From the NCBI GenBank assembly GCA_023398375.1, contig JAEWSH010000133.1, forward strand, positions 244,260 to 308,259: a stretch of DNA of 64,000 nt, given 5' to 3'. This document shows positions 1,699 through 51,447 of this stretch, piece after piece (position 1 is the first letter of the stretch; the number at the start of each line of letters is the position of its first letter). The notes under the pieces are model-generated. The model made no database searches. It worked only from the letters and a program-made list of their open reading frames with translations, and was not told the origin of the DNA. Source of the stretch: Bacillota bacterium (GTDB taxonomy: Bacteria > Bacillota > Clostridia > Lachnospirales > Lachnospiraceae). The translations under genes were made by a program, and so were the position numbers.

Positions 1699-1845
1699 GT
1701 GTGAGAAGAGTGCGAGAAGTAATTCTAAGATGTGAAAGAACCACATCTAAGAATTACTAAGTCTCACACCGGAAGAAGATGCGGGCATCTTCTTCTCAGG
1801 GATTGTTTGTGCCGCCAGTTGCGGCATGCCTGGAAGTATAAAAGT
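1699..1845 (+). repeat. Family-A structured intergenic repeat, copy 1 (three stem-loops)
   Basis: Starts with GTGTGAGAAG. Long hairpin GAGAAGTAATTCTAAGATGTG-AAAGAAC-CACATCTAAGAATTACTAAGTCTC. Then GAAGAAGATGC/GCATCTTCTTC and TGCCGC-cagtt-GCGGCA. Confidence 0.8.
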
Positions 1846-4865: not shown

Positions 4866-5306
4866 ATGATAAAATTTGCAATGGAAATGTATAAAAAATA
4901 CGAAGATGTGATCTTATATCTGTTTTTTGGAGGATTGACCTTTCTGATTAGTATCGGCTCTTATTATGTGTGCGCTGAAACCTTAGGCATGCACTATATG
5001 GTAGCCAATGTGATTTCCTGGATCGTAGCAGTCCTGTTTGCTTATATTACGAACCGCATCTTTGTATTTAAGAGCAGTGCCACAGGATTTGCACAGATTC
5101 TCAAGGAATTATGGTTATTTATAGCCTGCAGATTAACGACCGGGGGAATGGAGATCGTAATTATGTTCATTGGCGTTACGCTTATGAGTGTGAACGATAT
5201 GATTGTTAAAATAATTTCACAAATTGTGGTTATCTTATCTAATTATGTTTTTAGTAAACTGATTATATTTAAGAAAGAAAAAATAGCAATTGATAAAAAA
5301 GTGTGA
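4866..5306 (+). CDS. gtrA: GtrA-family membrane protein (polyprenyl-phosphate-sugar flippase family)
   Basis: 146 aa with 4 TM segments. VANVISWIVAVLFAYITNRIFVFKS is the GtrA signature. Confidence 0.8.
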   Translation: MIKFAMEMYKKYEDVILYLFFGGLTFLISIGSYYVCAETLGMHYMVANVISWIVAVLFAYITNRIFVFKSSATGFAQILKELWLFIACRLTTGGMEIVIMFIGVTLMSVNDMIVKIISQIVVILSNYVFSKLIIFKKEKIAIDKKV

Positions 5307-5440
5307 AAAGCATTTCTAAAGAAGCGAAAGAACCGCTTCTGAGAAATGCTAAGTTTCACACAGGAAGAAGCCTCTTGCGAGTCTTCTTCTTCCTGATTAT
5401 TTGTGCCGCTTGAAGCGGCATGTCTGGAAGTGTGAGAAGT
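5301..5440 (+). repeat. Family-A structured intergenic repeat, copy 2
   Basis: Starts GTGTGAAAAG and contains the gtrA stop codon. Hairpin AGCATTTCTAAAGAAGCG-AAAGAAC-CGCTTCTGAGAAATGCT. Then GGAAGAAG..CTTCTTC and TGCCGC-ttgaa-GCGGCA. Ends in the tail TGTCTGGAAGTGTGAGAAG. Confidence 0.8.
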
Positions 5441-6642: not shown

Positions 6643-8427
6643 ATGCAAAGAGAAAAAGCAAAAAAGTATATTAATTACATAGTATTTCCGATCATATTGC
6701 TTTTGTATCCGCTGATGCAATGTAATATTGGCGTAGATGTTACAGATACCGGCTACAGTCTCGGAAGTTATCTGTTTTCTTCTGCACAGATGGGAGAAAA
6801 ATGGGTCTTTTTTGCGTTCTATTTAGCGAATGTAGTCGGTTCCATGCTGACACATCTTCCATTCGGCCAGACGATGATCGGTATGAATTTTTATACAGGT
6901 CTTTTTGTAAGTGCAACGGCATTAATTTCCTATTATTTTTTGATCCGTAAGATTCCGGCATGGATAGCATTGACAGGAGAATTCATGGCAATCAGTTTAT
7001 GTTGGTGCCCAACGGTAATACTTTATAACTACTTAACATTTTTTTTCTTTACCATCATGGTAATATGCCTTTATAAAGGCATTATGGAAGATAAGAGAAT
7101 ATGGCTGGTATGCGCTGGTGTTGTGTTAGGACTAAGCGTCATGAGCCGTTTTCCGAATATTACGCAGGCAGCACTTATCATTGCGGTATGGTATTACGGT
7201 TGGCTGCAGAAAGACAACATCAGTAACGTGCTGAAAAATACAGGTGCGTGCATTTTGGGATTTCTGATTGGCATGGGTGCAATGCTTAGTATAATAGCCA
7301 CCCAATATGGTATGGAATCTTATTTTGGGATGATCAGCAGTTTGCTTTCCGGTGAAGGCAGTGTAGAAGGGCATTCACTGGGGGATATGGTATGGCCGAT
7401 CATAGATGCTTATTTTGTGGCAGCCAAATGGTTCTTTTTTATCATTGCAGTGGCAGTTGGCGGTATCCTTCTTTTTATGATTTTGAGAGACCGCTTTATA
7501 ATTATAAAAAAAGTAGGTTATATCATTACCATACTTGTCTTATTTCGTTTTCTATATGGAAGAGGGATGTTCAACTTCAGATATTATGCATATGACTCTA
7601 TGTTTCAATGGGTCGCAATATTTTTAATATTATCTCTGATATCATCTGCGGTCATAATGGCACAGAAAAATACTTCCCTGTCAGACAAGACCCTGGCGTG
7701 TATGACAATTCTGATCATTGCTGTAACGCCCATTGGAAGTGATAACTACCTATATATGAATATGAATAACCTGTTCCTGGTGGCACCCCTTGTGTTATAC
7801 TGGATAAGCCTATATGTAAAAGGAAACAGAAACCCTAAGATCGGCAGAATAGAGATAGAAAGGTTTCCGATCACGGCTATATTGGTCATGGTAATCGCTG
7901 TCACATTACTGCAAAGTGTTGGATTTGGATTTACATTTGTATTTCGGGATGGTACACTAGGCGAAAAACGGGATACCAGGATTTACAAAAACAATGTATT
8001 ATATGGCATGTATACAAATCGGGAAAATGCAGAAACCATAGAAGGAATTACGGAGTATTGTGAACAGAAGCAATTACAGGGAAAGAAAGTGATCTTATAT
8101 GGAGATATCCCGGCAATGTCCTGTTTCCTTCAGATGCCCGCGGCATTATCCACTACATGGCCGGATCTTGCCAGCTATACGATAGAAACAATGCAAAAGG
8201 ATATCGCTTTGATCAGACAGGAACAGGATAGCAATGACCGTCCGGTCATTATTGTGAGTTCCGGATTTGGGGCATGGCTTATGGAAGATCTGGAAGAGAT
8301 GAATTATTTTGGGATATCTCCGGAAAAGTATGACAATGATGAGAAAGCGACACTTATTCGTAATTTAATACTGGACATGCAGTATGAACAGACATATGCG
8401 AACAGCAAATTTGCGCTGTTTGAATAA
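6643..8427 (+). CDS. GT-C-like polytopic membrane protein with a C-terminal soluble domain (putative extracytoplasmic glycosyltransferase)
   Basis: 594 aa, about 12 TM segments. There is an acidic first-loop motif VDVTDTGY, and a hydrophilic C-terminal ~170 aa. Confidence 0.45.
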   Translation: MQREKAKKYINYIVFPIILLLYPLMQCNIGVDVTDTGYSLGSYLFSSAQMGEKWVFFAFYLANVVGSMLTHLPFGQTMIGMNFYTGLFVSATALISYYFLIRKIPAWIALTGEFMAISLCWCPTVILYNYLTFFFFTIMVICLYKGIMEDKRIWLVCAGVVLGLSVMSRFPNITQAALIIAVWYYGWLQKDNISNVLKNTGACILGFLIGMGAMLSIIATQYGMESYFGMISSLLSGEGSVEGHSLGDMVWPIIDAYFVAAKWFFFIIAVAVGGILLFMILRDRFIIIKKVGYIITILVLFRFLYGRGMFNFRYYAYDSMFQWVAIFLILSLISSAVIMAQKNTSLSDKTLACMTILIIAVTPIGSDNYLYMNMNNLFLVAPLVLYWISLYVKGNRNPKIGRIEIERFPITAILVMVIAVTLLQSVGFGFTFVFRDGTLGEKRDTRIYKNNVLYGMYTNRENAETIEGITEYCEQKQLQGKKVILYGDIPAMSCFLQMPAALSTTWPDLASYTIETMQKDIALIRQEQDSNDRPVIIVSSGFGAWLMEDLEEMNYFGISPEKYDNDEKATLIRNLILDMQYEQTYANSKFALFE

Positions 8428-8442: not shown

Positions 8443-9573
8443 ATGATTAACTTTAACGTACCACCGTATACAGGAAAAGAAATAGACTATATTAAGAAAG
8501 CGGTCGAAAATCAGAAAATATGTGGAGACGGCGAGTTCACCAAAAAATGCAATGCGTGGATAGAAGAAAGAACAGGTACGGTAAAGTGTCTGCTGACGAC
8601 CTCCTGTACGCATGCAACTGAATTGGCAGCATTACTGGCAGATATTCAGGAAGGCGATGAAGTGATCATGCCGGCATATACATTTGTTTCAACAGCAGAT
8701 GCCTTTGTTCTAAGAGGTGCAAAGGTGGTATTTGTGGATATCCGGCCGGACACTATGAATATTGATGAGAATCTGATCGAAGGTGCGATCACGGATAGGA
8801 CACGGGCAATCGTTCCGGTTCACTACGCAGGGGTATCCTGTGAAATGGACAAGATCATGGAGATTGCACATAAGTATAATCTTGTTGTCATAGAAGATGC
8901 GGCACAGGGTATTATGTCAACCTATAAAGGAAAGGCACTTGGAACAATTGGAGATTTTGGCTGTTTTAGTTTTCATGAGACAAAAAATTACAGTATGGGC
9001 GAAGGCGGCGCATTACTGATCAGAAATGAAGCGCATATTGAAGAGGCAGAAATCATTCGTGAAAAGGGAACGGATAGAAGCAAGTTCTACAGAGGACAGA
9101 TAGATAAGTATACATGGGTCAATTATGGTTCCTCTTATTTACCGAGTGATATGAACGCGGCTTACCTGTATGCACAGTTGGAGATGGCAGACGAGATCAA
9201 TGATGCAAGGCTTGCCTGCTGGAACCAGTATAACGAAGAATTACAGGGATTGAGACAAGCTGGAATCATAGAGCTTCCGGTGATACCTGAAGGATGCATA
9301 CATAATGCACACATGTTCTTTATTAAGGTAAAAGACCTGGAAGAAAGAAGCAGATTAATTGATTTTTCCAAAGAAAATGGCATATGGCCGGTATTTCATT
9401 ATATACCACTGCACACAGCTCCTGCCGGGAAAAAGTTCGGCCGTTTCCATGGAGAGGACGTATATACCACAAAGGAGAGCGAGAGACTTTTGAGACTGCC
9501 GATGTATTATGGTCTGCGATCAGAACAAGTGTCATATATCACAGGTAAAATAAAGGAATTCTATGCAAAGTAA
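8443..9573 (+). CDS. wecE: dTDP-4-amino-4,6-dideoxygalactose transaminase (WecE/RffA family)
   Basis: FNVPPYTGKEIDYIKKAV...ICGDGEFTKKC...EVIMPAYTFVSTADAFVLRGAKVVFVDIRPDTMNIDE is nearly colinear with E. coli WecE as I recall it. Confidence 0.85.
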   Translation: MINFNVPPYTGKEIDYIKKAVENQKICGDGEFTKKCNAWIEERTGTVKCLLTTSCTHATELAALLADIQEGDEVIMPAYTFVSTADAFVLRGAKVVFVDIRPDTMNIDENLIEGAITDRTRAIVPVHYAGVSCEMDKIMEIAHKYNLVVIEDAAQGIMSTYKGKALGTIGDFGCFSFHETKNYSMGEGGALLIRNEAHIEEAEIIREKGTDRSKFYRGQIDKYTWVNYGSSYLPSDMNAAYLYAQLEMADEINDARLACWNQYNEELQGLRQAGIIELPVIPEGCIHNAHMFFIKVKDLEERSRLIDFSKENGIWPVFHYIPLHTAPAGKKFGRFHGEDVYTTKESERLLRLPMYYGLRSEQVSYITGKIKEFYAK

Positions 9574-11338
9574 CAGGAAGAAAATTATCTCACAAAATCA
9601 AATAATAGCAGCGCTTTTTATCATTCTGCTAGGTATTTTAATTGCATTTCGTTATGATTATTATTATGATCTTAATGATGATCTGGTAATGAAAGATATT
9701 GTTGCAGGAGTCTATACCGGGACACCGGATGGTCATAATATCCAGATGTTATATCCGATCAGCTGGCTGATCAGTATAGGCTATCGGATGCTCAGGCCGA
9801 TACCCTGGTATGGAATTTTTATTGTGACTTGCCAATTTGGTTGTCTGTTTCTGATTGCGGGCAGGATTGCACGCTATTTTGGATCAGTATGGAGCAAGTG
9901 TGCGGCAGTCGCTGTAGAATTAGTTGTAGCAGGAGCATTTTTTCTTTATGAATTGGTGTTCACACAGTATACCGTTACGGCAGCACTGTTAGGAGCTACA
10001 GCGGCATTTCTGCTCTATACGACGGAACAGGAACTTCCCTGGAAAGATTTTATTAAACAGAATGTAATCAGTATCGTCATGGTGATTCTTGCCTATCAGA
10101 TACGAACGGAAATGCTCCTTCTGATATTTCCGGTCATTTGTGTAGTAGGAGTCTGTAAGTGGGCAAGGGAAGAACAGATATTTTCTAAAGATAGTTTTAA
10201 GAAATACATGATCCTGATCGGCGTCATTCTGATTGGCATGTTGATGAGTGAAGGCGCGAATAAAATAGCATATGGGAGTGAAGAATGGAAAAGTTTTCAA
10301 TCCCTTTTTGACAGCCGAACGGAATTATATGACTTTCAGTCCATTCCGAAATATGAGGAACATCAGGAATTTTATGAAAGTATCGGTTTAAAACAGAGCG
10401 AACAACAGTTGTTTGAAAATTATAACTTTGGATTTGATGAAAAGATCAATGAGCATACGATGAAAGCAGTCGCTGATTATGCAAAAGCAAATCAACGAAA
10501 TGGGCAGACATCAGAGAGTCATTTGAAAGAGAGCATAAAAACATATTTCTATATGGCCTTTCTAGAAAAAGATAAGCTGCCATGGAACCAAGTCCTTATT
10601 TTAGCGTATATTCTGGTATTATTACTCGCGTTGAGCGGCAGGCAATATTCTTTTTTATGGAAACTGCCATTCCTGGCGTGTGTAAGAAGCGTATTGTGGC
10701 TATACATTATCTATCATCATAGATATCCTCCTCGTATCACGCATTCTCTATATATTGTGGAACTATTGGTATTATGCGGGATGATGTTAGAATTGAGGAA
10801 AGAAGTACAAAAGAGTGATGGAAGTAAAGCAGTGTCAAGAATACTGGCAGAGGTTCCGTTTGCTATGATTTGTATCCTTTCTGTCCTATACTTATCATCC
10901 GGAATTAAATATGTCCAGACAGAATATGACAGGCGGGAAGCAGTGAATGAGGAATATCTTGCATTGCAGTCATACTGTGCAGAGCATGCGGATCAGATAT
11001 ATCTTCTGGATATCTATTCTACCGTGGCATATTCGGAGAAAATGTTTTATGGTGTCTCAAATCTGCTGGCTAATTATGAATATTTAGGCGGCTGGGTCAG
11101 TAAGAGCCCGGTAGATAGGAACAAATTAAAGGTATTGGGCATTTCTACGATAGAAGAAGCCGCATGCAGTCAAAATAATGTATATATTATCAGTCACCAT
11201 GTTAAGAGAGAGATTGACTGGCTTGATTTCTATCTGCAGGAACAGGGATATGCAAAGGAAGCAAAAAAAGTCGATGAGATCATAAATAAAGGGAATATAA
11301 GTTTTGACGTGTATCAGATAGTTGATATTGATATGTGA
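9563..11338 (+). CDS. Polytopic membrane protein with a C-terminal soluble domain (GT-C-like, unassigned family)
   Basis: 591 aa with multiple TM segments. Acidic first-loop motif YYDLNDDLVMKD. The start overlaps the wecE end by 11 nt. Confidence 0.35.
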   Translation: MQSNRKKIISQNQIIAALFIILLGILIAFRYDYYYDLNDDLVMKDIVAGVYTGTPDGHNIQMLYPISWLISIGYRMLRPIPWYGIFIVTCQFGCLFLIAGRIARYFGSVWSKCAAVAVELVVAGAFFLYELVFTQYTVTAALLGATAAFLLYTTEQELPWKDFIKQNVISIVMVILAYQIRTEMLLLIFPVICVVGVCKWAREEQIFSKDSFKKYMILIGVILIGMLMSEGANKIAYGSEEWKSFQSLFDSRTELYDFQSIPKYEEHQEFYESIGLKQSEQQLFENYNFGFDEKINEHTMKAVADYAKANQRNGQTSESHLKESIKTYFYMAFLEKDKLPWNQVLILAYILVLLLALSGRQYSFLWKLPFLACVRSVLWLYIIYHHRYPPRITHSLYIVELLVLCGMMLELRKEVQKSDGSKAVSRILAEVPFAMICILSVLYLSSGIKYVQTEYDRREAVNEEYLALQSYCAEHADQIYLLDIYSTVAYSEKMFYGVSNLLANYEYLGGWVSKSPVDRNKLKVLGISTIEEAACSQNNVYIISHHVKREIDWLDFYLQEQGYAKEAKKVDEIINKGNISFDVYQIVDIDM

Positions 11339-13297: not shown

Positions 13298-15280
13298 CTA
13301 TTGAATCTGAAGTGGCAGCTCTGCTTTTGTTTTGCTGTCGGAATCGATGCATATGAATCTTGCAGAATCGATGTCCTGTAGTTCACTTTGTGGAATGATA
13401 AAGAGGACACCGCTGTTCAAGAGTTCTTTTTTTCCGCCATTCGCATCGACGACATCTGTACGTTCTACGATTTCGGGGCGGTAAGTATGATTGCCGGCAA
13501 TGATGAATATATCATCCCAACAGGAAACAGAAGCGGAGTTAAAGGCCCATCCGACCAGGACAAGTGAAGGTGTTCCCTGTACATCAGTTGTCATAGAATT
13601 ATCCAGAATGCCCTGTTCATTAACACCGGAATTCCAGGTATAATCCAGAATATCATTATTTGTGTCATAGCTTTCCCATGGACTGGTACAGACATAATAA
13701 TGTCCCGTCTGAACCATATCAAAATTATTTTTCTTTAATAATTCCAGATAATCAGTATCTTTGTCCTGAATAATATAATTGGCATTCAGATCAATCGTTT
13801 TCGGAAGATTGAAATCAAAGTTTTTGTATGCACTGGTCCATTCCCACAAATGTTCACTGTCTTCAATTTCCAGACGGTTATATTCATAAGGGGAGGTCAG
13901 AGTCGCCGATAAGTAATAGATATAAGTCTGATCCAGATTCCCGATGTAAGTAGTTTTAGCAGCTGTTTCTTTTGGAGCTTCAGTATTCAGGTATTCGAGT
14001 GGTTCATGAAGAGGATTATTGAATAATTGAATCAGATAAGTATCCTCTTTATAATCTTTAAAATAATAGCTCGCAAAGCTGAAGAAGGAGATCGCATAGG
14101 CGGTGATCAATATGCTTAAGGCTGCGTATGCAGATTTTATTGATTTTTTCTTCAGGAACTGATACACAACCAGGATACCGTCTAACAGAAGTATGAGGAG
14201 TGTGATAAATACTCCGTTCAGTGTATACGTACGTGTAGGCTGCTCAATTAAAAAACATCCCATAAATAGTTCTGTAAAAGTCCAAAGTGTAATAGGAAAA
14301 GCAGTATTCCATTCCCGCTTAAGGATGCTGGAAACAGAGAGCCTGATATGATGGGCCAGACCGATGAAAATAAAAGGGACAGAAAAAGCATACATGGTAT
14401 GATATTTCGGAATGGTATCAAAGAGCAGGTGATCGTGGAAAAATACTCCCTTAAATACATTTACTGCATTTGTAAAGAAAGAGCTTAAGACGAATTCTTC
14501 ACCCCGATAGCGATACATTTTTGTTACGGTCAAAAACCCCAGTCTGATTTCTGATAAATTGAACATATTGACGATCTGCTCTAAAACTAGCGGCAATCCC
14601 AATACAGTAAGTGGTATTACAAAGGCAAAAAATTGTTTCCAGGTGATCTTATGTGTTCTTATCATATAGAGTATCATTCCAAAAAGGAAGATCGGTAAGA
14701 TAAAATAGCTAAGTGCATACGTATATAGCACAAGTCCGCATAACAATCCGCTTATCAGATAACGTTTTACGGAAGGTTTCTCAATCGCGGAAAAGAGAGA
14801 ATAGAGAAAGGCAGTTGAAAGTCCTAACATCAGGTTACAGTCGAAACCCATCCTGTGTAAGGTGGTAAAAATAGGGCAGACTGTATATAAAGCTGTAAAT
14901 GCAAGGATCAGGTTCATATTTTTTCCGTATTTCAAGCAAATGATCTTTATGCCAAAGAAAAGCGTCAGACAGGAAAATAATGCGATCGGAATCCGTATGG
15001 TCAGAATGGTTAACGGAAATCCCAATTTAATCAGTATCGCACATAAATACGTGTATAATGCACTTTGACCATCACAGTAATTAATAAAATATACCGGAAA
15101 ACTTTTTAAGAATCGGTCAACACCGAAGTTTGCAATACACCAGGCGTCGTATCCGGTTCCCATCTCATCTACATTAATACCATAGGGAATCTGAGCCAGC
15201 ATATAAAAGTGCATAAAAATATTAACAAGAAGTAATCCTGCAAGGAGAAATACTTTTTTAGGTTTGTTTATCTTTAACAT
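13298..15280 (-). CDS. GT-C family membrane glycosyltransferase (ArnT/PMT_2-like); the only minus-strand gene
   Basis: First-loop motif GINVDEMGTGYD, about 12 TM segments, and a C-terminal soluble ~250 aa. Start set at MLKINKPKK (ATG 15280), which has a GGAAAGAAAGGAA SD. Confidence 0.6.
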   Translation of the reverse strand: MLKINKPKKVFLLAGLLLVNIFMHFYMLAQIPYGINVDEMGTGYDAWCIANFGVDRFLKSFPVYFINYCDGQSALYTYLCAILIKLGFPLTILTIRIPIALFSCLTLFFGIKIICLKYGKNMNLILAFTALYTVCPIFTTLHRMGFDCNLMLGLSTAFLYSLFSAIEKPSVKRYLISGLLCGLVLYTYALSYFILPIFLFGMILYMIRTHKITWKQFFAFVIPLTVLGLPLVLEQIVNMFNLSEIRLGFLTVTKMYRYRGEEFVLSSFFTNAVNVFKGVFFHDHLLFDTIPKYHTMYAFSVPFIFIGLAHHIRLSVSSILKREWNTAFPITLWTFTELFMGCFLIEQPTRTYTLNGVFITLLILLLDGILVVYQFLKKKSIKSAYAALSILITAYAISFFSFASYYFKDYKEDTYLIQLFNNPLHEPLEYLNTEAPKETAAKTTYIGNLDQTYIYYLSATLTSPYEYNRLEIEDSEHLWEWTSAYKNFDFNLPKTIDLNANYIIQDKDTDYLELLKKNNFDMVQTGHYYVCTSPWESYDTNNDILDYTWNSGVNEQGILDNSMTTDVQGTPSLVLVGWAFNSASVSCWDDIFIIAGNHTYRPEIVERTDVVDANGGKKELLNSGVLFIIPQSELQDIDSARFICIDSDSKTKAELPLQIQ

Positions 15281-15364
15281 AGGTGGTTCCTTTCTTCCGT
15301 ACATCATAATAGTAACATTTTAATACATGAAAAGTAGATTAGCAATAGTGAACAAGTGTAGATA

Positions 15365-15428: not shown

Positions 15429-17948
15429 TTGAAACGAGAACTAAAGCAATATCACGTGCTGCAGATATTTTTTGTGATCATGGCAGCAGTGGGAATATTA
15501 TTGATATATCCAGGCAGAATCTATGGGCAGAAGGTCACAAATGAAATACAGGCTGACACATATCAGGAGACAGGAATTCTGGATGATCAGATTAATGTGA
15601 TGCAGGAATTCATTCCATCACAGGAACAATTGCATGCCATTACGGTCATGGTAGATTCGCTGGGTGGCTCCACAGGACTTTTTAAGCTGCATTTATACGA
15701 TCAGTCCTTGAATCTGTTATGGGAAGACGGACGAAGATTTGGCGAAAGTCCCGGAATTGCCAAGTATACGTTTCATGTAGATCAGAAAGTAGCGATCGGA
15801 CAACCTTACTATTATACACTGGATTATGACAGTGCATCTTTTGCAGTGTGTTATACAGATAAAAATTCGCAGGTGCAGGGAGATAATGGCATACTCTATT
15901 ATAATCTGCAGGAAATACCGAACGGTACACTTATTACAAGCTATCAATACAAAATACCGCTTAGCTTTAAAAGAATTATAGTTTATGATGCAGCAATTCT
16001 CTTTGCAGCACTGTTGGCATGTTTTGCTGCAGAAGCACTGGGAAGGCGCGGAAGATTAGGCAGAAGTATGACAAAGAGCCAGGTGCTTCATTTATATGCC
16101 GGAACATTTTTGGCAATCTGCGTAGTGTATGCAATATGGCAGGTGATGTGGAATCATACGTTCAGTGCAAATCTTACGGAAAATACTGTTTTAGCAACAG
16201 GCATTTTACTGACAGGCGTGATTGCAATCTATGGAGTATTTAGAATTCAGATAGAACGCATTAAAATAGATAAAGTGACAATCAGAAATAAAATTCCCGA
16301 TATGCTGCAAATCTTATTTTGGGGAATGGCTATACTGGCATGTTGTGACTTTGTGAATGCAGGATCAAACTATGCGCAAGGATTGGCATTACGTGAGATG
16401 TGCATTTATTTCGGACTTGCAGTGATTACGATGTTTACAAAAAGAGAATTATATAACAGGGTAATGGTAATTTATCTAATATTGGGTGCCGGAGCAGCTT
16501 TCTTTTACAGTAGGATGTTCTGGGGACAGGGAGAACCCTTCCAGACAGCAGTGCGGACAGCTGCTATGTGTCTGGTTGCAGGTGTTGTGATATTGGTAAC
16601 GGCTTATCATTTACTGCAAAAAAAAGTAGCATTTTTTTCTCTGCCTTTTGCGGCAATGATAGGAATATTTTTTATATTGCTTCTTATTTTTAGAAACGGA
16701 AATATATGGGAAGTTGCAATTGTAGTGCCATTTACTCTTTTTTATATCAAACGGCAGAGTATGGAACAAATGGATAGAATGCTTGGAAATATTGCAAATG
16801 GTGTTATTTTGTCTTTTGCGGTCACGACCATACAGGCATTATTGTACCGGCCATTTCACTATTATACGATGATCCGTTACTCCGGTATTTTTATGACTGT
16901 TACTGTAACAGCAGTGTATCTGAGTATGATTTTTGCAGTTGCATTATGTAAACTATTGATAAAATATCGTCATTCCCATACAATAAAAAGTGTGTGGAAA
17001 GAACTTTTTATTATGGGTCTGGCGTGCGGATATGAATTCTTAACATTATCAAGAACCGGCATGGCATCCTGCTTAGTGGTATACGTTGTAACGTGCGGAT
17101 TGTATTTGATATTTCACAGGAAAGAACAGATACACCCAATCCGTTTTGTCTGTTACACAGTACTTGCAATTATCTGCTGTATTCCGATTGCCTATACAGG
17201 ATCCAGAATTGTGCCTGCACTTTCCGACAGGCCGAAGATATATCTGGGAGAAGAATTTCAGGATTCTATTAAACAAGGAGAACCGGTCGATTCTTTTCGA
17301 TATATTACCATCGAAAAGCTTCTTGGCATGTCCAGGGAACGTATGCTGGGCAAGACGGACTTGAGTTTTGTAACGAAATCCGGAAAGACTGTGGAAGAGG
17401 TACTGGAAGAGGCTAAGAAACAAAATGAAGATGCATCTGACATGGAAGAAAGCGGTGTTACTGTAAACGACGATAAAGTAACCTATATAGATGATTATGG
17501 CAGTGAATATACGATCGATAATCCGGACTATTCCAATGGAAGGTTAGAGATTTTCAAGATATATCTTAAGAACCTGAATCTGACAGGACATAGTGCGATA
17601 GGTCTTCCGCAGGAGGATGGTTCCATTCTTGTACATGCACACAATTCTTTCATACAAATGGCATATGATTGTGGTATCGTTACAGGAGTTATATTTATTT
17701 TATGTTATATCATATTGGGCTTTCGAAGTATATGGTATTATCAGAAACGTAAAGATAGAGACAAATATGCTATGCTGCCGGTCATTATTTTTGCAGCATT
17801 TGGTATTTCAAGCATGGTAGAATATGTATTTCGTCCTACGATACCACTTGGTTTTGTTTTTTTACTTATGATAGCACCGCTAATAGTCAGATTAGATAAA
17901 TGTGATGCGCAGAAGGCTGGCGCAGAGTTGGAGCAGAAACAGAGATGA
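15429..17948 (+). CDS. O-antigen ligase/polymerase family (Wzy_C domain) protein, unusually large
   Basis: 839 aa. TTG start with an AGAGGG SD. TLSRTGMASCL and HAHNSFIQMAYDCGIVTG are Wzy_C-type motifs. There is an N-terminal ~170-aa extracytoplasmic domain and a ~140-aa hydrophilic insert. Confidence 0.7.
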   Translation: MKRELKQYHVLQIFFVIMAAVGILLIYPGRIYGQKVTNEIQADTYQETGILDDQINVMQEFIPSQEQLHAITVMVDSLGGSTGLFKLHLYDQSLNLLWEDGRRFGESPGIAKYTFHVDQKVAIGQPYYYTLDYDSASFAVCYTDKNSQVQGDNGILYYNLQEIPNGTLITSYQYKIPLSFKRIIVYDAAILFAALLACFAAEALGRRGRLGRSMTKSQVLHLYAGTFLAICVVYAIWQVMWNHTFSANLTENTVLATGILLTGVIAIYGVFRIQIERIKIDKVTIRNKIPDMLQILFWGMAILACCDFVNAGSNYAQGLALREMCIYFGLAVITMFTKRELYNRVMVIYLILGAGAAFFYSRMFWGQGEPFQTAVRTAAMCLVAGVVILVTAYHLLQKKVAFFSLPFAAMIGIFFILLLIFRNGNIWEVAIVVPFTLFYIKRQSMEQMDRMLGNIANGVILSFAVTTIQALLYRPFHYYTMIRYSGIFMTVTVTAVYLSMIFAVALCKLLIKYRHSHTIKSVWKELFIMGLACGYEFLTLSRTGMASCLVVYVVTCGLYLIFHRKEQIHPIRFVCYTVLAIICCIPIAYTGSRIVPALSDRPKIYLGEEFQDSIKQGEPVDSFRYITIEKLLGMSRERMLGKTDLSFVTKSGKTVEEVLEEAKKQNEDASDMEESGVTVNDDKVTYIDDYGSEYTIDNPDYSNGRLEIFKIYLKNLNLTGHSAIGLPQEDGSILVHAHNSFIQMAYDCGIVTGVIFILCYIILGFRSIWYYQKRKDRDKYAMLPVIIFAAFGISSMVEYVFRPTIPLGFVFLLMIAPLIVRLDKCDAQKAGAELEQKQR

Positions 17949-21070: not shown

Positions 21071-21718
21071 ATGTATCAGCGATTTGTAAAAAGGGTATTC
21101 GATATCATATTATCGGGAGCCGGACTGCTTATTCTAAGCCCGGCTTATTTGGTGTTAGCGATACTGGTCAGGGTATGCCTGGGAAGTCCGGTTCTATTCC
21201 GACAGGAGCGGCCGGGACGCGGGGAGAAGATATTTACATTGAAAAAATTCCGAACTATGACGGACAAGAGAGGTGCAGATGGGAAATTACTCCCGGATCG
21301 TGAGAGACTGACTTCTTTTGGAAAGTTCTTAAGAGCGACCAGTCTGGATGAACTTCCTGAATTATGGAATATCTTCGTGGGAGATATGAGTGTCATCGGC
21401 CCCAGACCGTTGTTAGTCAGCTATCTGCCATATTATACGGAAAGAGAGCGGAAAAGACATTCGGTGAGGCCGGGATTAACTGGTCTTGCACAGGTGAGCG
21501 GTCGTAATTATCTTGCGTGGGATAAGCGTCTGGAAAAAGATGTTGAATATGTAGAGCACATTACGTTTATCAATGATGTGAAAATATTGATGAAAACGGT
21601 ATCTGTTGCACTGAAACCAGCTAATGTTGCCGAGGACACGAATCAGGCAGAAGGTAATTTTGCACAGATACGGAAAGCACAGCAGGAAGGTTCGAAAGCA
21701 GATAGCTTTCCATTATAA
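21071..21718 (+). CDS. Small monotopic phosphoglycosyltransferase (PglC/WecP-like 'bacterial sugar transferase'), initiating enzyme
   Basis: KRVFDIILSGAGLLILSP, SPVLFRQERPG, FTLKKFRTM, DELPELWNIFVGDMSVIGPRP. Confidence 0.9.
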   Translation: MYQRFVKRVFDIILSGAGLLILSPAYLVLAILVRVCLGSPVLFRQERPGRGEKIFTLKKFRTMTDKRGADGKLLPDRERLTSFGKFLRATSLDELPELWNIFVGDMSVIGPRPLLVSYLPYYTERERKRHSVRPGLTGLAQVSGRNYLAWDKRLEKDVEYVEHITFINDVKILMKTVSVALKPANVAEDTNQAEGNFAQIRKAQQEGSKADSFPL

Positions 21719-21721
21719 TAG

Positions 21722-21758
21722 TTCATGACAAGTGAGTCGGCTTGCCGATTCATCTTGT
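21722..21758 (+). repeat. Element E, copy 1 (37-nt hairpin repeat)
   Basis: TTCATGACAAGTGAGTCGGCTTGCCGATTCATCTTGT is 33/37 identical to 49472-49508. Confidence 0.6.
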
Positions 21759-22776: not shown

Positions 22777-23922
22777 ATGAAAAAGACAATTATGATACTG
22801 ACCAACAGTGATTCCGGTCTTTATGATTTTCGGAAAGAAATACTGAAAGAACTGATTGCAGAAGGATACCGGGTCATTGTGTCGGTGCCGGCTGGTAATT
22901 ATCAGAACAGAATTGAACAATTAGGCTGTGAATATGTGGCAACAGCAGTAAACAGACGTGGTATGAACCCAATAAAAGACGCTTTCCTCTTGATGAACTA
23001 TCTGCGGATGTTAAGAAAGTATAGGCCGGATGTAGTACTTACGTATACGGTTAAACCGAATACTTATGGCTGCATAGCCTGCAGAATCCTTCGTATTCCT
23101 TTTATAGTGAATATAACAGGTCTTGGAACTGCCTTAGAGAACTCTGGAATGGTTCAGAGAATTGTGGTCATGTTATACAGAATCGCATTGAAGAGGGCAA
23201 GGTGTGTTTTTTTTCAAAATGAATATAATCAAAAATTCATAAAAGATCTAGGCTGCATTCATGGAAAAACTAGACTTTTACCGGGATCCGGGGTAAATAT
23301 AACAGAACATGAGTATACGCCTTATCCGGATGAAGAAAAAGAAATTCGTATTCTGGATGTCATGCGCATTATGCGCGCAAAGGGAGCTTCCGAACTACTT
23401 ACTGTGGCACCGGTGATTCATACAGAATTTCCCCGAGTGATTTTTGAAATAGCAGGTTCCTATGAAGAAGAAAGCAGGGCAGAATATGAACCTATGATAA
23501 AGGACTTGCAAGACAGGGGGATTTTGCGTTATTATGGGTATCGGGAAGATATCCAGAAAATAATGGAAAATAGCCATATAATCATAAATCCGTCATACAG
23601 TGAAGGCATGTCGAATGTGCTGCTGGAAGCAGCAGCGACCGGAAGACCGGTTATTGCTACTAATATAAACGGCTGTATAGAGGCGTTTCAGGATGGCATT
23701 ACAGGAATCAGCTGCGATGCGAAGAATAATGAATCACTGCTGCGGGCATTGCGGAAAATGTTAAAGAAATCTGCGGATGAAAGGGCACTGATGGGACGTG
23801 ATGGAAGAACCTATGTGAAGGAAAGGTTTAACCGGGAAATAGTCGTTTCTATTTATTTGGAAGAGATTGCGGCAGCAATAAAGGACAAGCAGAATAGCAT
23901 AAGAAATAAGAAAAGAGGATAA
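22777..23922 (+). CDS. GT4 glycosyltransferase
   Basis: GT-B fold with the EX7E region NPSYSEGMSNVLLEAAATGRPVI. Confidence 0.8.
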   Translation: MKKTIMILTNSDSGLYDFRKEILKELIAEGYRVIVSVPAGNYQNRIEQLGCEYVATAVNRRGMNPIKDAFLLMNYLRMLRKYRPDVVLTYTVKPNTYGCIACRILRIPFIVNITGLGTALENSGMVQRIVVMLYRIALKRARCVFFQNEYNQKFIKDLGCIHGKTRLLPGSGVNITEHEYTPYPDEEKEIRILDVMRIMRAKGASELLTVAPVIHTEFPRVIFEIAGSYEEESRAEYEPMIKDLQDRGILRYYGYREDIQKIMENSHIIINPSYSEGMSNVLLEAAATGRPVIATNINGCIEAFQDGITGISCDAKNNESLLRALRKMLKKSADERALMGRDGRTYVKERFNREIVVSIYLEEIAAAIKDKQNSIRNKKRG

Positions 23923-26314: not shown

Positions 26315-26565
26315 AATATTTGAATTCGTCATTTTGCACAATTTACGCTAATGTATATTGATACACAACATAGTTCATTCGCAACGCTCCCGCTTGGATT
26401 TAGTACGCAGTGGTACATAAGAGCATAAAATACATGCTCTAAGTACCAGCGGCTTCATACAGTTGCTCACCAAACTATGTTGTGCATCAATTTTGATAAG
26501 GTAAGTGTATGTGCAAACTGACGAAGCCAAGTTTTCTGATAAACTAATGACATTTGAATCTTGTA
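26315..26565 (-). repeat. Family-B nested-palindrome element, copy 1 (inverted relative to copy 2)
   Basis: The reverse complement of 26321-26535 aligns by eye to 47190-47404 at roughly 90 % identity. The terminal inverted repeats are degenerate. Confidence 0.8.
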
Positions 26566-31793: not shown

Positions 31794-32950
31794 AAAAGAA
31801 TCTTTTACTCATAGTTCCAATGCTGCATCAGGGCGGATTTGAAAGAGTATGCATACGGACAGCACGAATGCTTGCGGATGAATGCAATGTTTCTATTCTG
31901 ATCTTTAGTGACGAGGATATTGCCTTTGACATAGAAGGACTGGATATTATAAATATAGATATCAAGAGCCGGGAGGGCGGATTCCGTAAAGCATGGAATC
32001 TGTTACGGCGGATACAGGCAGTAAAACGGATCAAAAAAGAGAAACACACACACATTTCTTATAGCTTCGGAGTGACAGCAAATCTTGTAAATGTATTTGC
32101 CATCGCACAGGACAAGTGTTGGGTTGGACTTCGGGGCTATACGGATCTGTATTCCAGGACGCTGAAAACAATCTGCAGCAGGGCGGATAAGATCGTCTGC
32201 TGCTCAAAGGTGATAGAAGAGGCAGTGAAAAAACAATTTACGGGGAAAGATGTTGCGAATATTCCCAATTCTTATGATATTGATTTGATTAATTCGCAGG
32301 CTGAGGAAGATATCCCGCAGGAGGATCAATACATATACGAGAATGGATATCGTGTATTGACAGCTGTCGGAAGAGAGGATGATCTGAAGGGATACTGGCA
32401 TCTGATCAGGAGCTTTGCCAAAGTAGTCCGGTCAGTACACGATGTGCGCCTCCTCATTATAGGGGAAGGGGAATATCTGGAGGACAAAAAATTCGCGGAG
32501 GCTCTTGGAATCGGGGATAAAGTGTTTTTTACCGGTGTCAGAAGTAATCCTTTCCCATATGTAAAGAAGGCATGTGCCTACATCTTATCGTCACGTAATG
32601 AAGGATTTCCCAATGCACTGGTAGAAGCCATGGCGCTGGGAAAACCGGTAATGGCTACGAATTGCCAGTCAGGACCTGCGGAGATATTATTTGAGGATTA
32701 CCGAAGAGCTGCAGACGATTCCATTGCTTATGATGCGGATTACGGTGTGCTGCTGCCAATGGTGATATGGCATAAAGATCTGCATCTGGAAGGTATCGAC
32801 GATGCAGAAGCGATTATGGCAGATGAGATCATCAAGATGCTGAATGATGAGAATAAACAGGCGAAATATGCTGCATTAGCTAGAAAAAGAGCAGAATATT
32901 TTTCTGATAAAAAGTATAAAGATTTATTACTTAGGAACATAATGGATTAA
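31790..32950 (+). CDS. GT4 glycosyltransferase
   Basis: VKKNLLLIVPMLHQGGFERV, SSRNEGFPNALVEAMALGKPV. GTG 31790 forms a GTGA overlap with the YfhO stop; the track's alternative is ATG 31739. Confidence 0.75.
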   Translation: MKKNLLLIVPMLHQGGFERVCIRTARMLADECNVSILIFSDEDIAFDIEGLDIINIDIKSREGGFRKAWNLLRRIQAVKRIKKEKHTHISYSFGVTANLVNVFAIAQDKCWVGLRGYTDLYSRTLKTICSRADKIVCCSKVIEEAVKKQFTGKDVANIPNSYDIDLINSQAEEDIPQEDQYIYENGYRVLTAVGREDDLKGYWHLIRSFAKVVRSVHDVRLLIIGEGEYLEDKKFAEALGIGDKVFFTGVRSNPFPYVKKACAYILSSRNEGFPNALVEAMALGKPVMATNCQSGPAEILFEDYRRAADDSIAYDADYGVLLPMVIWHKDLHLEGIDDAEAIMADEIIKMLNDENKQAKYAALARKRAEYFSDKKYKDLLLRNIMD

Positions 32951-37049: not shown

Positions 37050-38930
37050 ATGTGCGGAATATGCGGATTTTTATCTAAAAAAAGTATTACAACAGAACAG
37101 TTAAAGAAAATGAATGATACCATGTATCACCGCGGACCGAACGACAGCGGGGAAGAGATTACTTCTTTACGGGATGGTTACAGCCTTGGACTGGCACAGA
37201 GGCGCCTGTCTATTCTGGATCTGTCGGTATTGGGGCATCAGCCGATGCATTCAGACAATGGCAGGATCAGTGTCGTATTCAATGGTGAGATTTATAATTT
37301 CCTGGAATTAAAGGAAGAACTGAGAGGTTATCCATTTCGATCGGACTGTGATACAGAAGTAATCATTGCAGCTTATCTGAGATGGGGAATCGATTGTATT
37401 CATAGATTCAAGGGAATGTTTGCGATTGCCTTATTTGACAGGGAAACAGACGAGTTATTTCTGGTAAGAGACAGAATCGGAAAAAAACCATTCTACTATT
37501 GGCTGGAAGAGGGAAATCTGGTGTTTGCTTCTGAGTTAAAACCGATCATGGCAGTACCTGGTTTTCAGTACACGATTCGCAAAGATGTGATCAAACAATA
37601 TATGTTCCAGCAATATATCAATGCACCTGCGACTATTTTTGAGAATGTCTTCAAGTTGGAACCTGGGGCTATCCTGCGTTTTCGTTATGGAGATATCAAG
37701 ATATGGAAATACTGGGATATCTCAAAAGTGTATCAGGAGCAGAAGGTACGCCCTGTAACTTCTTATGAAGAAGCAAAAGCGACTTTGAAGGACTTATTAA
37801 GGGAATCAGTGAAACAGAGAATGATTGCGGATGTACCGCTGGGGACTTTCTTGAGTGGCGGTTATGATTCGTCACTTGTTTCTGCGATCGCACAGGAATT
37901 GTCGCAAGAACCGATCAAGACTTTCTGTATCGGATTCCAGGAAGAGAAGTTCAATGAAGCAAAGTATGCCAAGGAAGTAGCAGCGCACCTTGGAACCAAT
38001 CATACGGAAACATATATTGATGAAAAAGAAATGTTCGAGCTCGTAGAGAGCATTCCGACTTATTTCGATGAACCATTTGCAGACAGTTCCCAGATACCGA
38101 CCATGCTGGTATCGAAACTGGCAAGACAGCAGGTCACGGTCGCTCTGTCAGGGGATGGCGGGGACGAGTTCTTCTGTGGCTATAATATCTATGATTCTGT
38201 CGGATTGGCACAGAAGCTTGATGGTCTGGGCGGTATCGTGAACGGTATCTGTAATGTGCCGCCTTTTAAGCAGATGGAACTATTATCAAAGCTGCCCTTC
38301 CGCGTTCGTGTGGTCGCCATTAACCGTAACCCGGAGACAAAGACACAGATCGGCGGAGAGAACTATATCCGTGCGATCGATAAGATGCTTGTGACGGATA
38401 GTCTGTCCAGCAAGTTCGAGATAGAAAGGCGTTATCAGGAAAAGAACTGGCAGGAGCGGAGAATGCTGCTGGATATGGATACGTATCTTCCGGGAGATAT
38501 TTTATGTAAGGTCGACAGAGCTTCTATGAAGTATTCGCTGGAATCCAGGTGTCCGATTCTGGATACGGATGTTATGGAATATTCGTATCGCCTGCCACAT
38601 GAATTTAAGTTCCGAAACGGAGATAAGAAGCATATCCTAAAGGATATTGCGTATGACTATATACCAAAAGAATTATTAGACAGACCGAAGGTCGGATTTG
38701 GGGTGCCGCTTGATAAATGGATGCGTGGCCCATTGAAAGAGCAGCTGTTGGAGATGAGCGATCTATCTTTCCTAAAAGAGCAGAATATCTTTGATAGTAC
38801 TTATGTAAATCAATTTATGACACGTTATCTGGAAGTGGGAGACAGAGGACCCGCAACAGGCGAGAACTTTTCTAAGACTGCATGGTCATTCTTTGCATTC
38901 CAGCAGTGGTACCGTGCGTATTGCAAATAG
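37050..38930 (+). CDS. asnB: Asparagine synthase (glutamine-hydrolysing) family amidotransferase, copy 1 (WbpS-like context)
   Basis: MCGICGF has the Ntn nucleophile Cys2. Also FNGEIYNF, and FLSGGYDSS and SGDGGDEFFCGY, which are PP-loop / synthetase-domain motifs. Confidence 0.9.
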   Translation: MCGICGFLSKKSITTEQLKKMNDTMYHRGPNDSGEEITSLRDGYSLGLAQRRLSILDLSVLGHQPMHSDNGRISVVFNGEIYNFLELKEELRGYPFRSDCDTEVIIAAYLRWGIDCIHRFKGMFAIALFDRETDELFLVRDRIGKKPFYYWLEEGNLVFASELKPIMAVPGFQYTIRKDVIKQYMFQQYINAPATIFENVFKLEPGAILRFRYGDIKIWKYWDISKVYQEQKVRPVTSYEEAKATLKDLLRESVKQRMIADVPLGTFLSGGYDSSLVSAIAQELSQEPIKTFCIGFQEEKFNEAKYAKEVAAHLGTNHTETYIDEKEMFELVESIPTYFDEPFADSSQIPTMLVSKLARQQVTVALSGDGGDEFFCGYNIYDSVGLAQKLDGLGGIVNGICNVPPFKQMELLSKLPFRVRVVAINRNPETKTQIGGENYIRAIDKMLVTDSLSSKFEIERRYQEKNWQERRMLLDMDTYLPGDILCKVDRASMKYSLESRCPILDTDVMEYSYRLPHEFKFRNGDKKHILKDIAYDYIPKELLDRPKVGFGVPLDKWMRGPLKEQLLEMSDLSFLKEQNIFDSTYVNQFMTRYLEVGDRGPATGENFSKTAWSFFAFQQWYRAYCK

Positions 38931-38947: not shown

Positions 38948-40042
38948 GTGAGTTTGAAAAAAGTAGCATTTTATATCAATAGTCTGGATAAAGGCGGTGC
39001 GCAGCGGGTCATAGTGAATTTATCGGAATTTTTATATCAGAATGGTACGGAAGTTGTTCTGGTTACGACCAGAAAAGCGGACGAGGAATACCTTGTGAGC
39101 GAGGGCATCCGGAGAATTTACTCCGACATTACGGCTTCGGAAGTGACAAAAAGCAGAATTCGTAATTTCCGGAACCGCTTTTGCAAGTTAAGGAATATCT
39201 GGAAACAGGAAAAACCGGATATTATCGTGTCGTTTATCGGAAAGAATAATTTCATGGCAATAGCGACTGCTGCTTTTCTAAGAGCGTCTGTTGCGGTATC
39301 TGTCAGAGGAGAACCGACAGAGGAATATTATAATCCGTTGATGCGTTTTATTGCAAGGCATTTATTTGCTTGTGCACGCGGAATTATTTTCCAGACTGAA
39401 GATGCAAAAGCATTTTTTCCAAAGTACGTTCAGAAACGTTCCGTTATCTTACCAAATCCGTTAGATATCTCATGCATCAGACCACGTTTTACAGGAAAAA
39501 GAGAAAATACGATTGTATCTGTCGGACGTGTGGATGATAATAAGAATCATAGAATGTTAATTGACGCTTTTGCGGCAATTCATACGGATTTTCCGGAAAT
39601 GGGGTTAGTCATATACGGAAATGGAGATATGCGTAACGAATTAATAAAATATATAAAAAAAATAGATATGGAGGATTATATCTCCATGCCTGGAAATGTA
39701 AGCCGGATACCGGATCATATTGAACGGGCAAGAATCTTTGTACTGACTTCAGATACCGAAGGTATGCCCAATGCCTTGCTGGAAGCAATGGCACTTGGTC
39801 TGGCAGTGATATCTACGGATTGTCCTTGCGGAGGTCCCAGAACGGTGATTCAGGATGGGGTCAATGGTCTGCTGGTACCTGTCAGAGATACGCAGGCACT
39901 TGCAAAAGCTTTAAGGAGATTCCTAAGTGCCCCTGATCTGGAGCAGAAGCTTGGAGAACAGGCGGCTAAGATTCAGGAACAGCTTTCTCCGGATCAGGTA
40001 AACCGTAAGTGGCAGTATTATCTGGAGCGTTTATCTAAATAG
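38948..40042 (+). CDS. GT4 glycosyltransferase (PglJ/PglH-like), paralogue of 35075-36196
   Basis: SLDKGGAQRVIVNLS, TSDTEGMPNALLEAMALGLAVISTDCPCGGPRTVI. I preferred the GTG 38948 start to the 38882 extension, which overlaps asnB. Confidence 0.85.
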   Translation: MSLKKVAFYINSLDKGGAQRVIVNLSEFLYQNGTEVVLVTTRKADEEYLVSEGIRRIYSDITASEVTKSRIRNFRNRFCKLRNIWKQEKPDIIVSFIGKNNFMAIATAAFLRASVAVSVRGEPTEEYYNPLMRFIARHLFACARGIIFQTEDAKAFFPKYVQKRSVILPNPLDISCIRPRFTGKRENTIVSVGRVDDNKNHRMLIDAFAAIHTDFPEMGLVIYGNGDMRNELIKYIKKIDMEDYISMPGNVSRIPDHIERARIFVLTSDTEGMPNALLEAMALGLAVISTDCPCGGPRTVIQDGVNGLLVPVRDTQALAKALRRFLSAPDLEQKLGEQAAKIQEQLSPDQVNRKWQYYLERLSK

Positions 40043-42242: not shown

Positions 42243-43706
42243 ATGAACATTACATCTTTTTCCTTTCTGTGTTTTTTTACGGTATTATTGATGGTATATT
42301 ACATCGTACCTAAAAAAGCACAATGGGGAGTGTTATTACTTGCAAGCATTATGTTCTTTGCAGCATCGGGAGAACCTTGGTTAATCGGTTATCCGATTGC
42401 TACGGTCATAGTCATATATGGGGGCGCATTGTATATTCATAAAGTGAAAGAGCAGAAAAAGAGACAAATCGCACTCTCACTTGTTGTTGTATTATGCGTT
42501 TCTTTGTTATGTATACTAAAATACTTTCACTTGGGGTTACTGGCACCACTGGGAATCTCGTTTTATACATTGACATTATTGGGATATGTCATTGACGTAT
42601 ATTATGAAATCGGAGAACCGGAAACGAATATTCTAAAACTGGCATTGTTCGGATATTACTTTCCGACAATGATATCAGGACCTATTATCCGCTACCGGGA
42701 TATGAGAGAGCAGCTATATGCAGGTCATCAGCTTGTGTATAAAAATGTGACATACGGAATGCAGCGGATCGTATGGGGCTTTTTTAAGAAGCTGGTGATA
42801 GCTGAACGAATGGGACTTATCGCAGATACGGTATTTAACAATTATGAAATCCATTCGGGATTTACGGTCATCATTGCGGGCATTTGTTTTACATTCCAGT
42901 TATATACGGATTTTTCGGGATACATGGATATCGTTCTGGGTGTTTCTGAGACTTTCGGCATTATACTTCCTGAGAATTTTGAAACACCGTTCTTTTCACG
43001 CAGTATTGCGGAATACTGGAGACGCTGGCATATTACATTAGGAACATGGCTTAGAGAATATTTATTTTATCCATTGCTTAGAACAAAGTTTTTCAGCTCA
43101 TTACCAAAGCGGTTAAAAGATAAATGCGGTAAGAAAACAGCAAAGAAGATGACCACCTATCTGGCAATGCTGATCTTATGGTTTACGATCGGATTCTGGC
43201 ATGGAGGAGTATGGAAATACATTATTGGATCTGGGCTGTTGCACTGGTTCTATATAGTATCAGGAGAAGTATTGGAACCTGTCTGGAAGAAGCTGAAAGG
43301 CTGGTTCCATGTGAAAGATGACAGCAAAGGCTTTATTTTTTTCCAGCGTGTAAGAACTTTTACATTAGTTACAATTGGTCTGATATTCTTCCGTGCGGAT
43401 AATGCAATGGTGGCATGTAGGATGCTGGCAAGTATTTTCCGTTCCTGGAATCCGGAAATATTCTGGAATGGATCTCTTTTCGAACTGGGACTTGATTGGA
43501 TTGAATTTACGATTGCAATGGTTTCCCTTGTAATGTTACTTATGGTATCTATTCTGCAACAGACTGAAAGTATCAGGGACAGGATCGCAAGACAGAAACT
43601 GGTGGTACGCTGGGTGATTCTCTATGCACTTATTTTTTATGTGATACTTCTGGGAAATTACGGACCTGGATATAGTGCGGCAGAATTTATCTATCAGGGA
43701 TTTTAG
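42243..43706 (+). CDS. MBOAT-family membrane O-acyltransferase (DltB/AlgI/PatA-like)
   Basis: 487 aa, polytopic. EYWRRWHITLGTWLREYLFYPL and IGFWHGG contain the conserved MBOAT His residues. Confidence 0.9.
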   Translation: MNITSFSFLCFFTVLLMVYYIVPKKAQWGVLLLASIMFFAASGEPWLIGYPIATVIVIYGGALYIHKVKEQKKRQIALSLVVVLCVSLLCILKYFHLGLLAPLGISFYTLTLLGYVIDVYYEIGEPETNILKLALFGYYFPTMISGPIIRYRDMREQLYAGHQLVYKNVTYGMQRIVWGFFKKLVIAERMGLIADTVFNNYEIHSGFTVIIAGICFTFQLYTDFSGYMDIVLGVSETFGIILPENFETPFFSRSIAEYWRRWHITLGTWLREYLFYPLLRTKFFSSLPKRLKDKCGKKTAKKMTTYLAMLILWFTIGFWHGGVWKYIIGSGLLHWFYIVSGEVLEPVWKKLKGWFHVKDDSKGFIFFQRVRTFTLVTIGLIFFRADNAMVACRMLASIFRSWNPEIFWNGSLFELGLDWIEFTIAMVSLVMLLMVSILQQTESIRDRIARQKLVVRWVILYALIFYVILLGNYGPGYSAAEFIYQGF

Positions 43707-43739
43707 TGTGAGAAGAAGCGCGTGGGATTAGGAGTTATT

Positions 43740-44819: not shown

Positions 44820-44821
44820 AA

Positions 44822-51385: not shown

Positions 51386-51447
51386 TAACAAGTTTGCTTT
51401 GGAAGAACGCTAAACCGTTCTTCTATTGTGAGAAGCCTCCTATAAAG

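Follow-up and report, generated by a model that had tools for sequence, protein, structure and literature searches.

The window, that is, the whole 64-kb stretch of DNA that was analysed, holds about 55 genes and four copies of a small, non-coding, structured element, here called family A. It is part of a metagenome scaffold of 297 kb. All window ORFs of good size with a Pfam match are concerned with glycan biosynthesis, and all but one are on the + strand. Present are pseB/C/F/G-like genes, GtrA, acyltransferases, many glycosyltransferases of the GT1, GT2 and GT4 families and two AsnB paralogues, with an ABC exporter, PMT_2, YfhO and CotH as further genes. No NusG-like gene and no transposase was detected among the window ORFs scanned with Pfam. 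The two AsnB-type amidotransferase paralogues (37050-38930 and 44929-46806) lie in one cluster. Several large ORFs matched no Pfam family. Two of these, a 669-aa ORF (13298-15307, minus strand), the only large one on that strand, and its divergent neighbour of 839 aa (15429-17948, + strand), form a pair that breaks the otherwise co-directional glycan cluster; four more are located at 6643-8427, 9563-11338, 51337-52551 and 56974-58167. The direct-repeat families D2 and D5 (23593-23633, 32591-32631, 39749-39789 and 62168-62199) were taken as shared coding sequence and not as elements, because their coordinates fall inside GT1/GT4 glycosyltransferase ORFs.

A full family-A unit measures ~125-165 nt and consists, in this order, of a first hairpin (H1), a linker, a second hairpin (H2), an AU-rich linker, a third hairpin (H3) and a tail, followed by a direct repeat of the unit's own first ~10 nt. 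H1 is long and bulged and is closed by GTGTGAGA/TCTCACAC. The direct repeat that bounds the element is its own 5' motif, GTGTGARAAG, and the ends are thus direct, not inverted (5' GTGTGAGAAG... versus 3' ...GGAAGTGTGAGAAG). The 3' part had been described as a tail in an earlier reading of the DNA made without database searches (the sequence-only reading); a tail is indeed present, but it is not a mere tail, as GTGTGAGAAG repeats the 5' boundary there and, in tandem arrays, is the start of the next unit.

Covariance model R1 is based on alignment A3, in which three full-length window copies are joined by seven of other genomes, ten in all. Run unfiltered over the 64 kb, it returned exactly the four copies that the sequence-only reading had placed there, all co-oriented on the + strand (E-values 1e-21 to 1e-36), together with weak reverse-strand echoes and one unrelated inverted repeat. 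A weak match at 26403-26513 was rejected as a family-A copy and is a different inverted-repeat element.

Copy 1 (1699-1842, + strand, 144.1 bits) is full length and is found in the spacer of the pseB-like and pseC-like genes, with 60 nt separating it from the preceding stop codon and 35 nt from the following ATG (1880). Its boundary motif is doubled by an 11-nt duplication (1699-1709) and is found at 1699-1708 and again at 1710-1719; H1 extends to ~1769, H2 occupies 1771-1796, the H3 core 1808-1828, and the 3' boundary is the degenerate GTATAAAAG. An 11-bp hairpin at 1662-1690, AAGAAATGCAG...CTGCATTTCTT, stands between copy 1 and the pseB-like stop and was scored as terminator-like on the minus strand only; it could divide transcription units, which would place copy 1 in a 5' leader. 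Copy 2 (5301-5439, + strand, 151.5 bits) is also full length, with H1 at 5301-5361, H2 at 5363-5390, the H3 core at 5403-5421 and the 3' direct repeat GTGTGAGAAG at 5430-5439, and the GTGTGA of its 5' boundary includes the TGA stop (5304-5306) of the GtrA-like gene. Copy 3 (44821-44908, + strand, 93 bits) comprises H1 and H2 and, as had been noted before, lacks H3. It begins 1 nt past the TAA of the upstream gene, and the ribosome-binding site GGAGG and the asnB ATG are 20 nt downstream. Its H3 was probably lost by deletion, given that the orthologous copy in a relative at 94% identity (L068, 9839-9973) is full length. Copy 4 (47042-47175, + strand, 134.1 bits) is full length; its apical stem is decayed, and its 5' motif is GTGTTAGAAG. 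It is situated in the 623-nt spacer between asnB and a GT2 gene, flanked on both sides by other inverted-repeat elements; its orthologue was found in L068 (12093-12226), and two further relatives, L069 and L070, have no copy there.

In the window, TGTGAGAAG occurs five times in total against 0.62 expected. Two boundary motifs had been reported as solitary, at 43707 and 51426, and both exist. The second is not isolated: at 51400-51435 (+ strand), direct reading finds an H2-like hairpin, GGAAGAACGCTAAACCGTTCTTC, followed by TTGTGAGAAG, a stretch without a covariance-model match, and because this H2-like remnant precedes the motif, the site is a decayed partial copy. The first, GTGTGAGAAG at 43706-43715 (+ strand), overlaps the TAG stop of an MBOAT gene; a similar motif is present in L069, the stretch is missing from L068 and the spacer of the outgroup L070 is different. 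This motif may have remained from a former copy, be a target site or have arisen by chance. No free-standing H2 or H3 was found in the window, H3 occurring neither alone nor inverted.

Other small repeats accompany family A. One family of ~210 nt (window 47190-47401) has long terminal inverted repeats, TTGGCTTCGTCAATTTGCACAT.../...ATGTGCAAATTGACGAA, and a second, internal inverted pair, and looks like a MITE; it was also seen at 26320-26520 (reverse), 49418-49508, 51447-51500, 58140-58212 and 21711-21758, and in L068 at 13600-13940, and it produced spurious mir-5014 matches on either strand. The sequence at its left flank, GTGTCAAAAGCTTATCATAGAACTTGGC, is similar to GTGTGAAAAG, the 3' boundary of family A. 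Since the ~210-nt element abuts family-A copies, adjoining the one in the window at 47167 and, reversed, one in L068, this suggests that it targets or carries the boundary motif. Just past asnB, at 46835-46995, lies a long inverted repeat of ~160 nt with an outer pair of perfect 18-nt arms (GTGCCGCCGGCTTATGAA/TTCATAAGCCGGCGGCAC) and an inner pair of 27 nt, which is kept in L068 and in its left part only in L069. With three unrelated small repeats in it, the asnB-to-GT2 spacer is therefore a pile-up of repeats.

Each window copy folds as the sequence-only reading had proposed; compared with dinucleotide shuffles, the z-scores range from -5.7 to -8.0, the predicted MFE as RNA is -29 to -61 kcal/mol, and the reverse strands fold about equally well. 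The compensatory changes listed in that reading for the basal, middle and apical stems of H1 are correct. A statistical covariation check, which it had called for, was made on 27 distinct copies fitted to the covariance model (alignment A4): 95.1% of pair cells hold standard pairs, versus 83% after shuffling of partners and 37-53% when partners are slid by 1-3 columns; double-sided changes occur in 26 of 40 pairs; and the observed pairing and covariation measures were reached in 0 of 500 shuffles. A structure-blind MAFFT alignment already contains double changes in 15 of 35 predicted pairs. The basal stem, which the sequence-only reading had seen as a 'boundary motif', covaries as well, being AGACGAAA/TTTCGTCT in L029 and ATATGAGA/TCTCATAT in L018. 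As pairing and covariation in the 27 copies exceed those in all shuffles, the hairpins are under constraint. The basal-stem 3' arm and the first linker were forced to be conserved by the search pattern itself, and their conservation is thus not independent evidence.

The claim that the element is structure-selected at the RNA level stands in its first part only, the structure being conserved with covariation. Departures from Watson-Crick pairing in the stems are about as often G-U (18) as A-C (17), so wobble pairs do not assign a strand and the constraint is not attributable to RNA. With selection on an RNA, one would expect G-U to be tolerated more readily, and the same covariation would arise if single-stranded-DNA hairpins were needed for the propagation of a mobile element. 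A switch in which TCTCACAC pairs with the 3' boundary, suggested by the MFE structure of copy 4, was dropped because L029 and L018, in which the basal stem is changed, have no matching change at the 3' boundary.

Copies differ in their set of modules: full H1-H2-H3 units occur beside units with H1 and H2 (window copy 3, L009, L006 and L013), units with H1 alone (L010 and L008) and mini-H1 forms with the basal stem only (the second unit of L029 and the pgk-tpiA site). Long H2 variants are lineage-specific and occur in Anaerocolumna and in one set of metagenome contigs. T-runs following H2 or H3 give a terminator-like appearance in some lineages (L011, L018 and L041); among the window copies, none was flagged as an intrinsic terminator with hairpin and U-tract. 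Head-to-tail arrays, in which units recur every ~123-127 nt, were found in L032 (2.3 copies at 95% identity, where the end of the locus is reached) and also in L025, L029 and L018. In L029, the family-A array is immediately followed by AAAAAGTAAC, three times in tandem (5178-5215), ahead of folD.

For the distribution of the element, the pattern CTAARTYTCACACMGGAAGA was scanned over 185,579 species genomes and found at 36 loci, 18 of which were recognised as true copies by eye and with the covariance model. The other 18 were rejected as chance or coding matches, mostly in Mucilaginibacter. Ten of the true copies are from one Bacillota MAG, OH_SFB_104, in which the pattern was on 13 contigs and the covariance model was run on ten of them; the remainder are from Anaerocolumna aminovalerica, an Anaerocolumna sp. 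and several Lachnospiraceae MAGs. A metagenome scan gave ~9 further loci. Other genomes were sampled as ~8-kb pieces. No match was obtained in viral contigs with the pattern or in phage and plasmid collections with BLAST of one copy, and Rfam searches at gathering and permissive thresholds, with the whole window and with one copy alone, returned noise only. A text search for the conserved 15-20-mers in one library of papers found no occurrence, and a keyword search found general papers on bacterial repeats only. Family A is an undescribed, lineage-restricted repeat scattered in Anaerocolumna-like Lachnospiraceae of gut and soil.

The genes flanking the copies are of many kinds: dus and a solute-binding protein, an MCP and a LacI regulator, an ABC ATPase and cytidylate kinase, argJ and argB, pgk and tpiA, a thiolase, a beta-CASP RNase and thyA, and folD; one H1-only copy precedes a putative pyrE, so read from the N-terminus of its translation. 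Across 130 flanking ORFs, 193 Pfam families were matched, with unrelated functions, and no recurrent transposase or integrase was detected. The only recombinases near copies are a cluster of large serine recombinases, with up to five flanking ORFs matching the Recombinase family. In L013 (3935-7097), two such genes are neighbours with a diverged family-A copy between them, and the element contains the TGA that ends the upstream gene.

This diversity of flanking functions rules out that the element serves polysaccharide operons in particular, and the earlier idea of a device belonging to one ~60-kb polysaccharide operon is not supported, the same element being found between unrelated housekeeping genes in other genomes. 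This also bears on the proposal that the copies are EAR-like or LoaP-dependent elements for antitermination or read-through in a long polysaccharide operon. The presence of four copies in a single ~60-kb co-directional glycan cluster speaks for it, yet Rfam gave no EAR match even at E<=10, there is no NusG-like gene in the window, and the orthologous cluster in L070 has no copy and that in L069 only a stump. Read-through control of this type, which the sequence-only reading had offered, did not hold up and is extremely unlikely.

With respect to the flanking genes, copies are in sense orientation at 25 of 28 loci and antisense at three, namely L001, one locus that is represented by L041, L044 and L059, and L068, where the copy is partial (binomial P of about 1e-5 against 50:50), which bears out the co-orientation with genes that had been noticed in the window. 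Gene direction and GC skew agree in every locus, the antisense ones included, and transcription and replication strand are therefore inseparable in these loci. In 17 of the 25 sense loci, the upstream gene stops between positions -10 and +13 relative to the first base of the element, and in 11 of the 25 the stop codon is provided by the element: seven times as the TGA of GTGTGA, three times as a TAG ending on the first G and once as a TAA at +13. The sense bias and the start at a stop codon are unexplained by neutral insertion, and a selected role at the RNA or translation level may lie behind them.

Such a role is the core of one alternative, in which family A is a selected cis-acting RNA module that punctuates operons and has spread because it is useful. 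When translation terminates within the 5' arm of H1, the ribosome would open the basal stem. Processing by RNase Y, III or J would be directed by the hairpins together with the AU-rich GAUUAUUUG, so that the upstream cistron would have H1 and H2 as a shield for its 3' end and the downstream cistron H3 for its 5' end; in a variant, a CsrA-like protein would bind two conserved GGA motifs. This account would explain orientation and stop-codon register better, and it agrees with the strong covariation, with copies within operons such as argJ-argB and pgk-tpiA, and with the unpaired ATTATTTG and the GGA of the tail, both of which are conserved beyond what the search pattern forced. It is set back by the absence of a preference for wobble pairs, the about equal folding of the reverse strand and the three antisense copies, by the fact that TCTCACAC and the 3' boundary do not covary in L029 and L018 as their alternative pairing would require, and by the finding, described below, that one and the same junction may be full, 5'-truncated, 3'-truncated or empty in close relatives. 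We regard it as unlikely.

Gain and loss were followed at two sites. In the pgk-tpiA spacer, the Anaerocolumna sp. (L026) has a 162-nt element and A. aminovalerica (L062) has none, only a single mini-hairpin, GTGTGAAGA...TCTTCACAC; the flanks are ~90% identical and the PGK proteins 96% identical, the edges of the indel coincide exactly with the direct repeat GTGTGAA(A/G)A, and the spacers of three more distant relatives are short and unrelated. The difference could alternatively be a deletion between direct repeats. The asnB region is syntenic in three relatives, with AsnB 94%, 91% and 79% identical. Its upstream junction is found in four states: without an element in the outgroup L070 (47-nt spacer), with a full copy in L068, with the H3-less copy in the window and, in L069, with a stump that is truncated at its 5' end. 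At their other junction, asnB and the GT2 gene overlap each other in L070, are separated in L069 by a spacer of 188 nt without a family-A copy, and in the window and L068 are >600 nt apart, with three different repeats side by side in the spacer. Between the GT2 and GT11 genes, the gap in L068 contains a reversed partial family-A copy beside another inverted-repeat element, and the spacer in the window is 23 nt. Because the junction states differ among relatives, the copies in this cluster arose within a sublineage and have since been eroding. This pattern of turnover is the behaviour of a selfish or neutral repeat and not that of an indispensable operon regulator. As no mobilising enzyme, terminal inverted repeat (TIR) or classical target-site duplication was found, the case for mobility is carried entirely by the indel polymorphism.

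The indel edges touch on a further alternative, a DNA recombination site of the attC or dif kind, with GTGTGARAAG as crossover core and hairpins formed in single-stranded DNA, by which modules between copies (asnB between copies 3 and 4, pseC to gtrA between copies 1 and 2) would be exchanged as cassettes. The edges fall exactly on direct repeats of one constant core, units form head-to-tail arrays, the hairpins have conserved bulges, departures from pairing are symmetric on both strands, and gene modules of a mosaic glycan locus have copies on either side, all of which would fit. Against this, there is no core of the GTTRRRY type and no single imperfect palindrome, an integrase is absent from the window and none recurs in the 130 flanking ORFs, and asnB and its neighbours are syntenic in L070. 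Since this outgroup is free of the element there, the genes did not arrive as element-bounded cassettes, and a dedicated recombination site is very unlikely.

Taken together, we consider family A a lineage-restricted, modular, dispersed repeat whose hairpins act generically on mRNA once they are co-transcribed, and give this reading a probability of roughly 65%. The repeat would have spread by a trans-acting process that recognises the hairpins and inserts on one strand, with the constraint on the hairpins acting on propagating (master) copies, and gain and loss between direct repeats would have produced the arrays and the 'solo' cores. Once inside an operon, an element would be co-transcribed, and its stable hairpins could block 3' exonucleases, its AU-rich linker could serve as an entry site for endonucleases, and the hairpins could form a roadblock that is opened by a terminating ribosome. 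In this way, the balance between the flanking cistrons in mRNA stability and expression would shift. Generic effects of co-transcribed hairpins have likewise been proposed for BOX, REP, ERIC and Correia elements (PMC3049150). The four copies in the glycan cluster would then be insertions into a recombination-prone locus and not a dedicated regulatory system. That family A stands for something more novel, either ribosome-sensed RNA punctuation or a new kind of propagation (hairpin-guided, strand-specific, templated by single-stranded DNA or RNA, acting at the 10-nt 5' core and targeting the bases after a stop codon), is quite unlikely; if such propagation were real, the head-to-tail arrays and the 'solo' cores would be its residue.

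For the Lachnospiraceae, whose dispersed repeats are hardly catalogued, family A adds a repeat family that conserves structure, and it accounts for unusually long spacers in the glycan cluster. The copies are likely substrates for recombination that reshuffles glycan loci. Annotation calls for some caution, as the hairpins are not riboswitch-like operon regulators and the repeat supplies several gene ends. The cultured A. aminovalerica DSM 1283 offers a natural system in a Gram-positive anaerobe for the effects of hairpins at stop codons on termination, mRNA decay and the ratio of cistrons. Family A also bears on how a repeat without TIRs spreads.

Among known systems, integron attC sites differ in their core, which is RYYYAAC...GTTRRRY and not GTGTGARAAG, and in having it on one imperfect palindrome and forming cassette arrays; family A has three independent hairpins and no more than four copies among the ~55 genes of the window, and there is no integrase in the window. 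EAR elements and LoaP-dependent leaders share with it a hairpin-rich RNA in long polysaccharide operons of Firmicutes, but family A has no model match, no restriction to such operons and no NusG paralogue nearby. Like the MITEs of the ERIC, Correia and NEMIS type, which are co-transcribed and cut by RNases, it is found near ORF ends and is polymorphic for presence and absence between relatives. Of the features of a classical MITE, however, only this polymorphism at orthologous sites was seen: those elements have TIRs and target duplications (e.g. TA), family A has neither a TIR nor a variable target-site duplication, and its flanking direct repeat is the same at all loci. For ERIC, Correia and NEMIS-type elements, effects on flanking transcripts are described as dependent on orientation (PMC3049150).

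The comparison with REP/BIME and pneumococcal BOX elements made in the sequence-only reading is apt. With REP, BIME and REPIN sequences, family A shares short GC-rich palindromes (H3 resembles one), clustered arrays and sites within operons, and, as for the REP/BIME-RAYT system, a hairpin-dependent model of propagation without TIRs can be drawn up. REP elements influence mRNA decay and, when near a stop codon, affect translation termination. Unlike REP/BIME, family-A units run head to tail and are not alternating or inverted, each unit combines three hairpins within 125-165 nt, and no RAYT or Y1 transposase was seen in the 130 flanking ORFs. It differs from BOX in its host, a member of the Lachnospiraceae, in the absence of a candidate mobilising IS and of a terminal inverted repeat of the boxA/boxC type, and in its direct end repeats and whole units arranged head to tail. 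BOX elements are modular (A-Bn-C) and are thought to affect co-transcribed genes through their secondary structure, and in one S. pneumoniae genome the stop codon of 36 CDSs is encoded within a BOX element (PMC3049150). Family A, like boxA-boxBn-boxC, is a small non-coding composite whose module content varies between copies; it is intergenic and dispersed, has very stable predicted hairpins, and often overlaps the 3' end of a CDS and provides its stop codon. Streptococcal BOX is thus its closest known counterpart, by likeness of architecture and position, and on this analogy family A is an additional small, dispersed, structured repeat family of the BOX/REP-like class.
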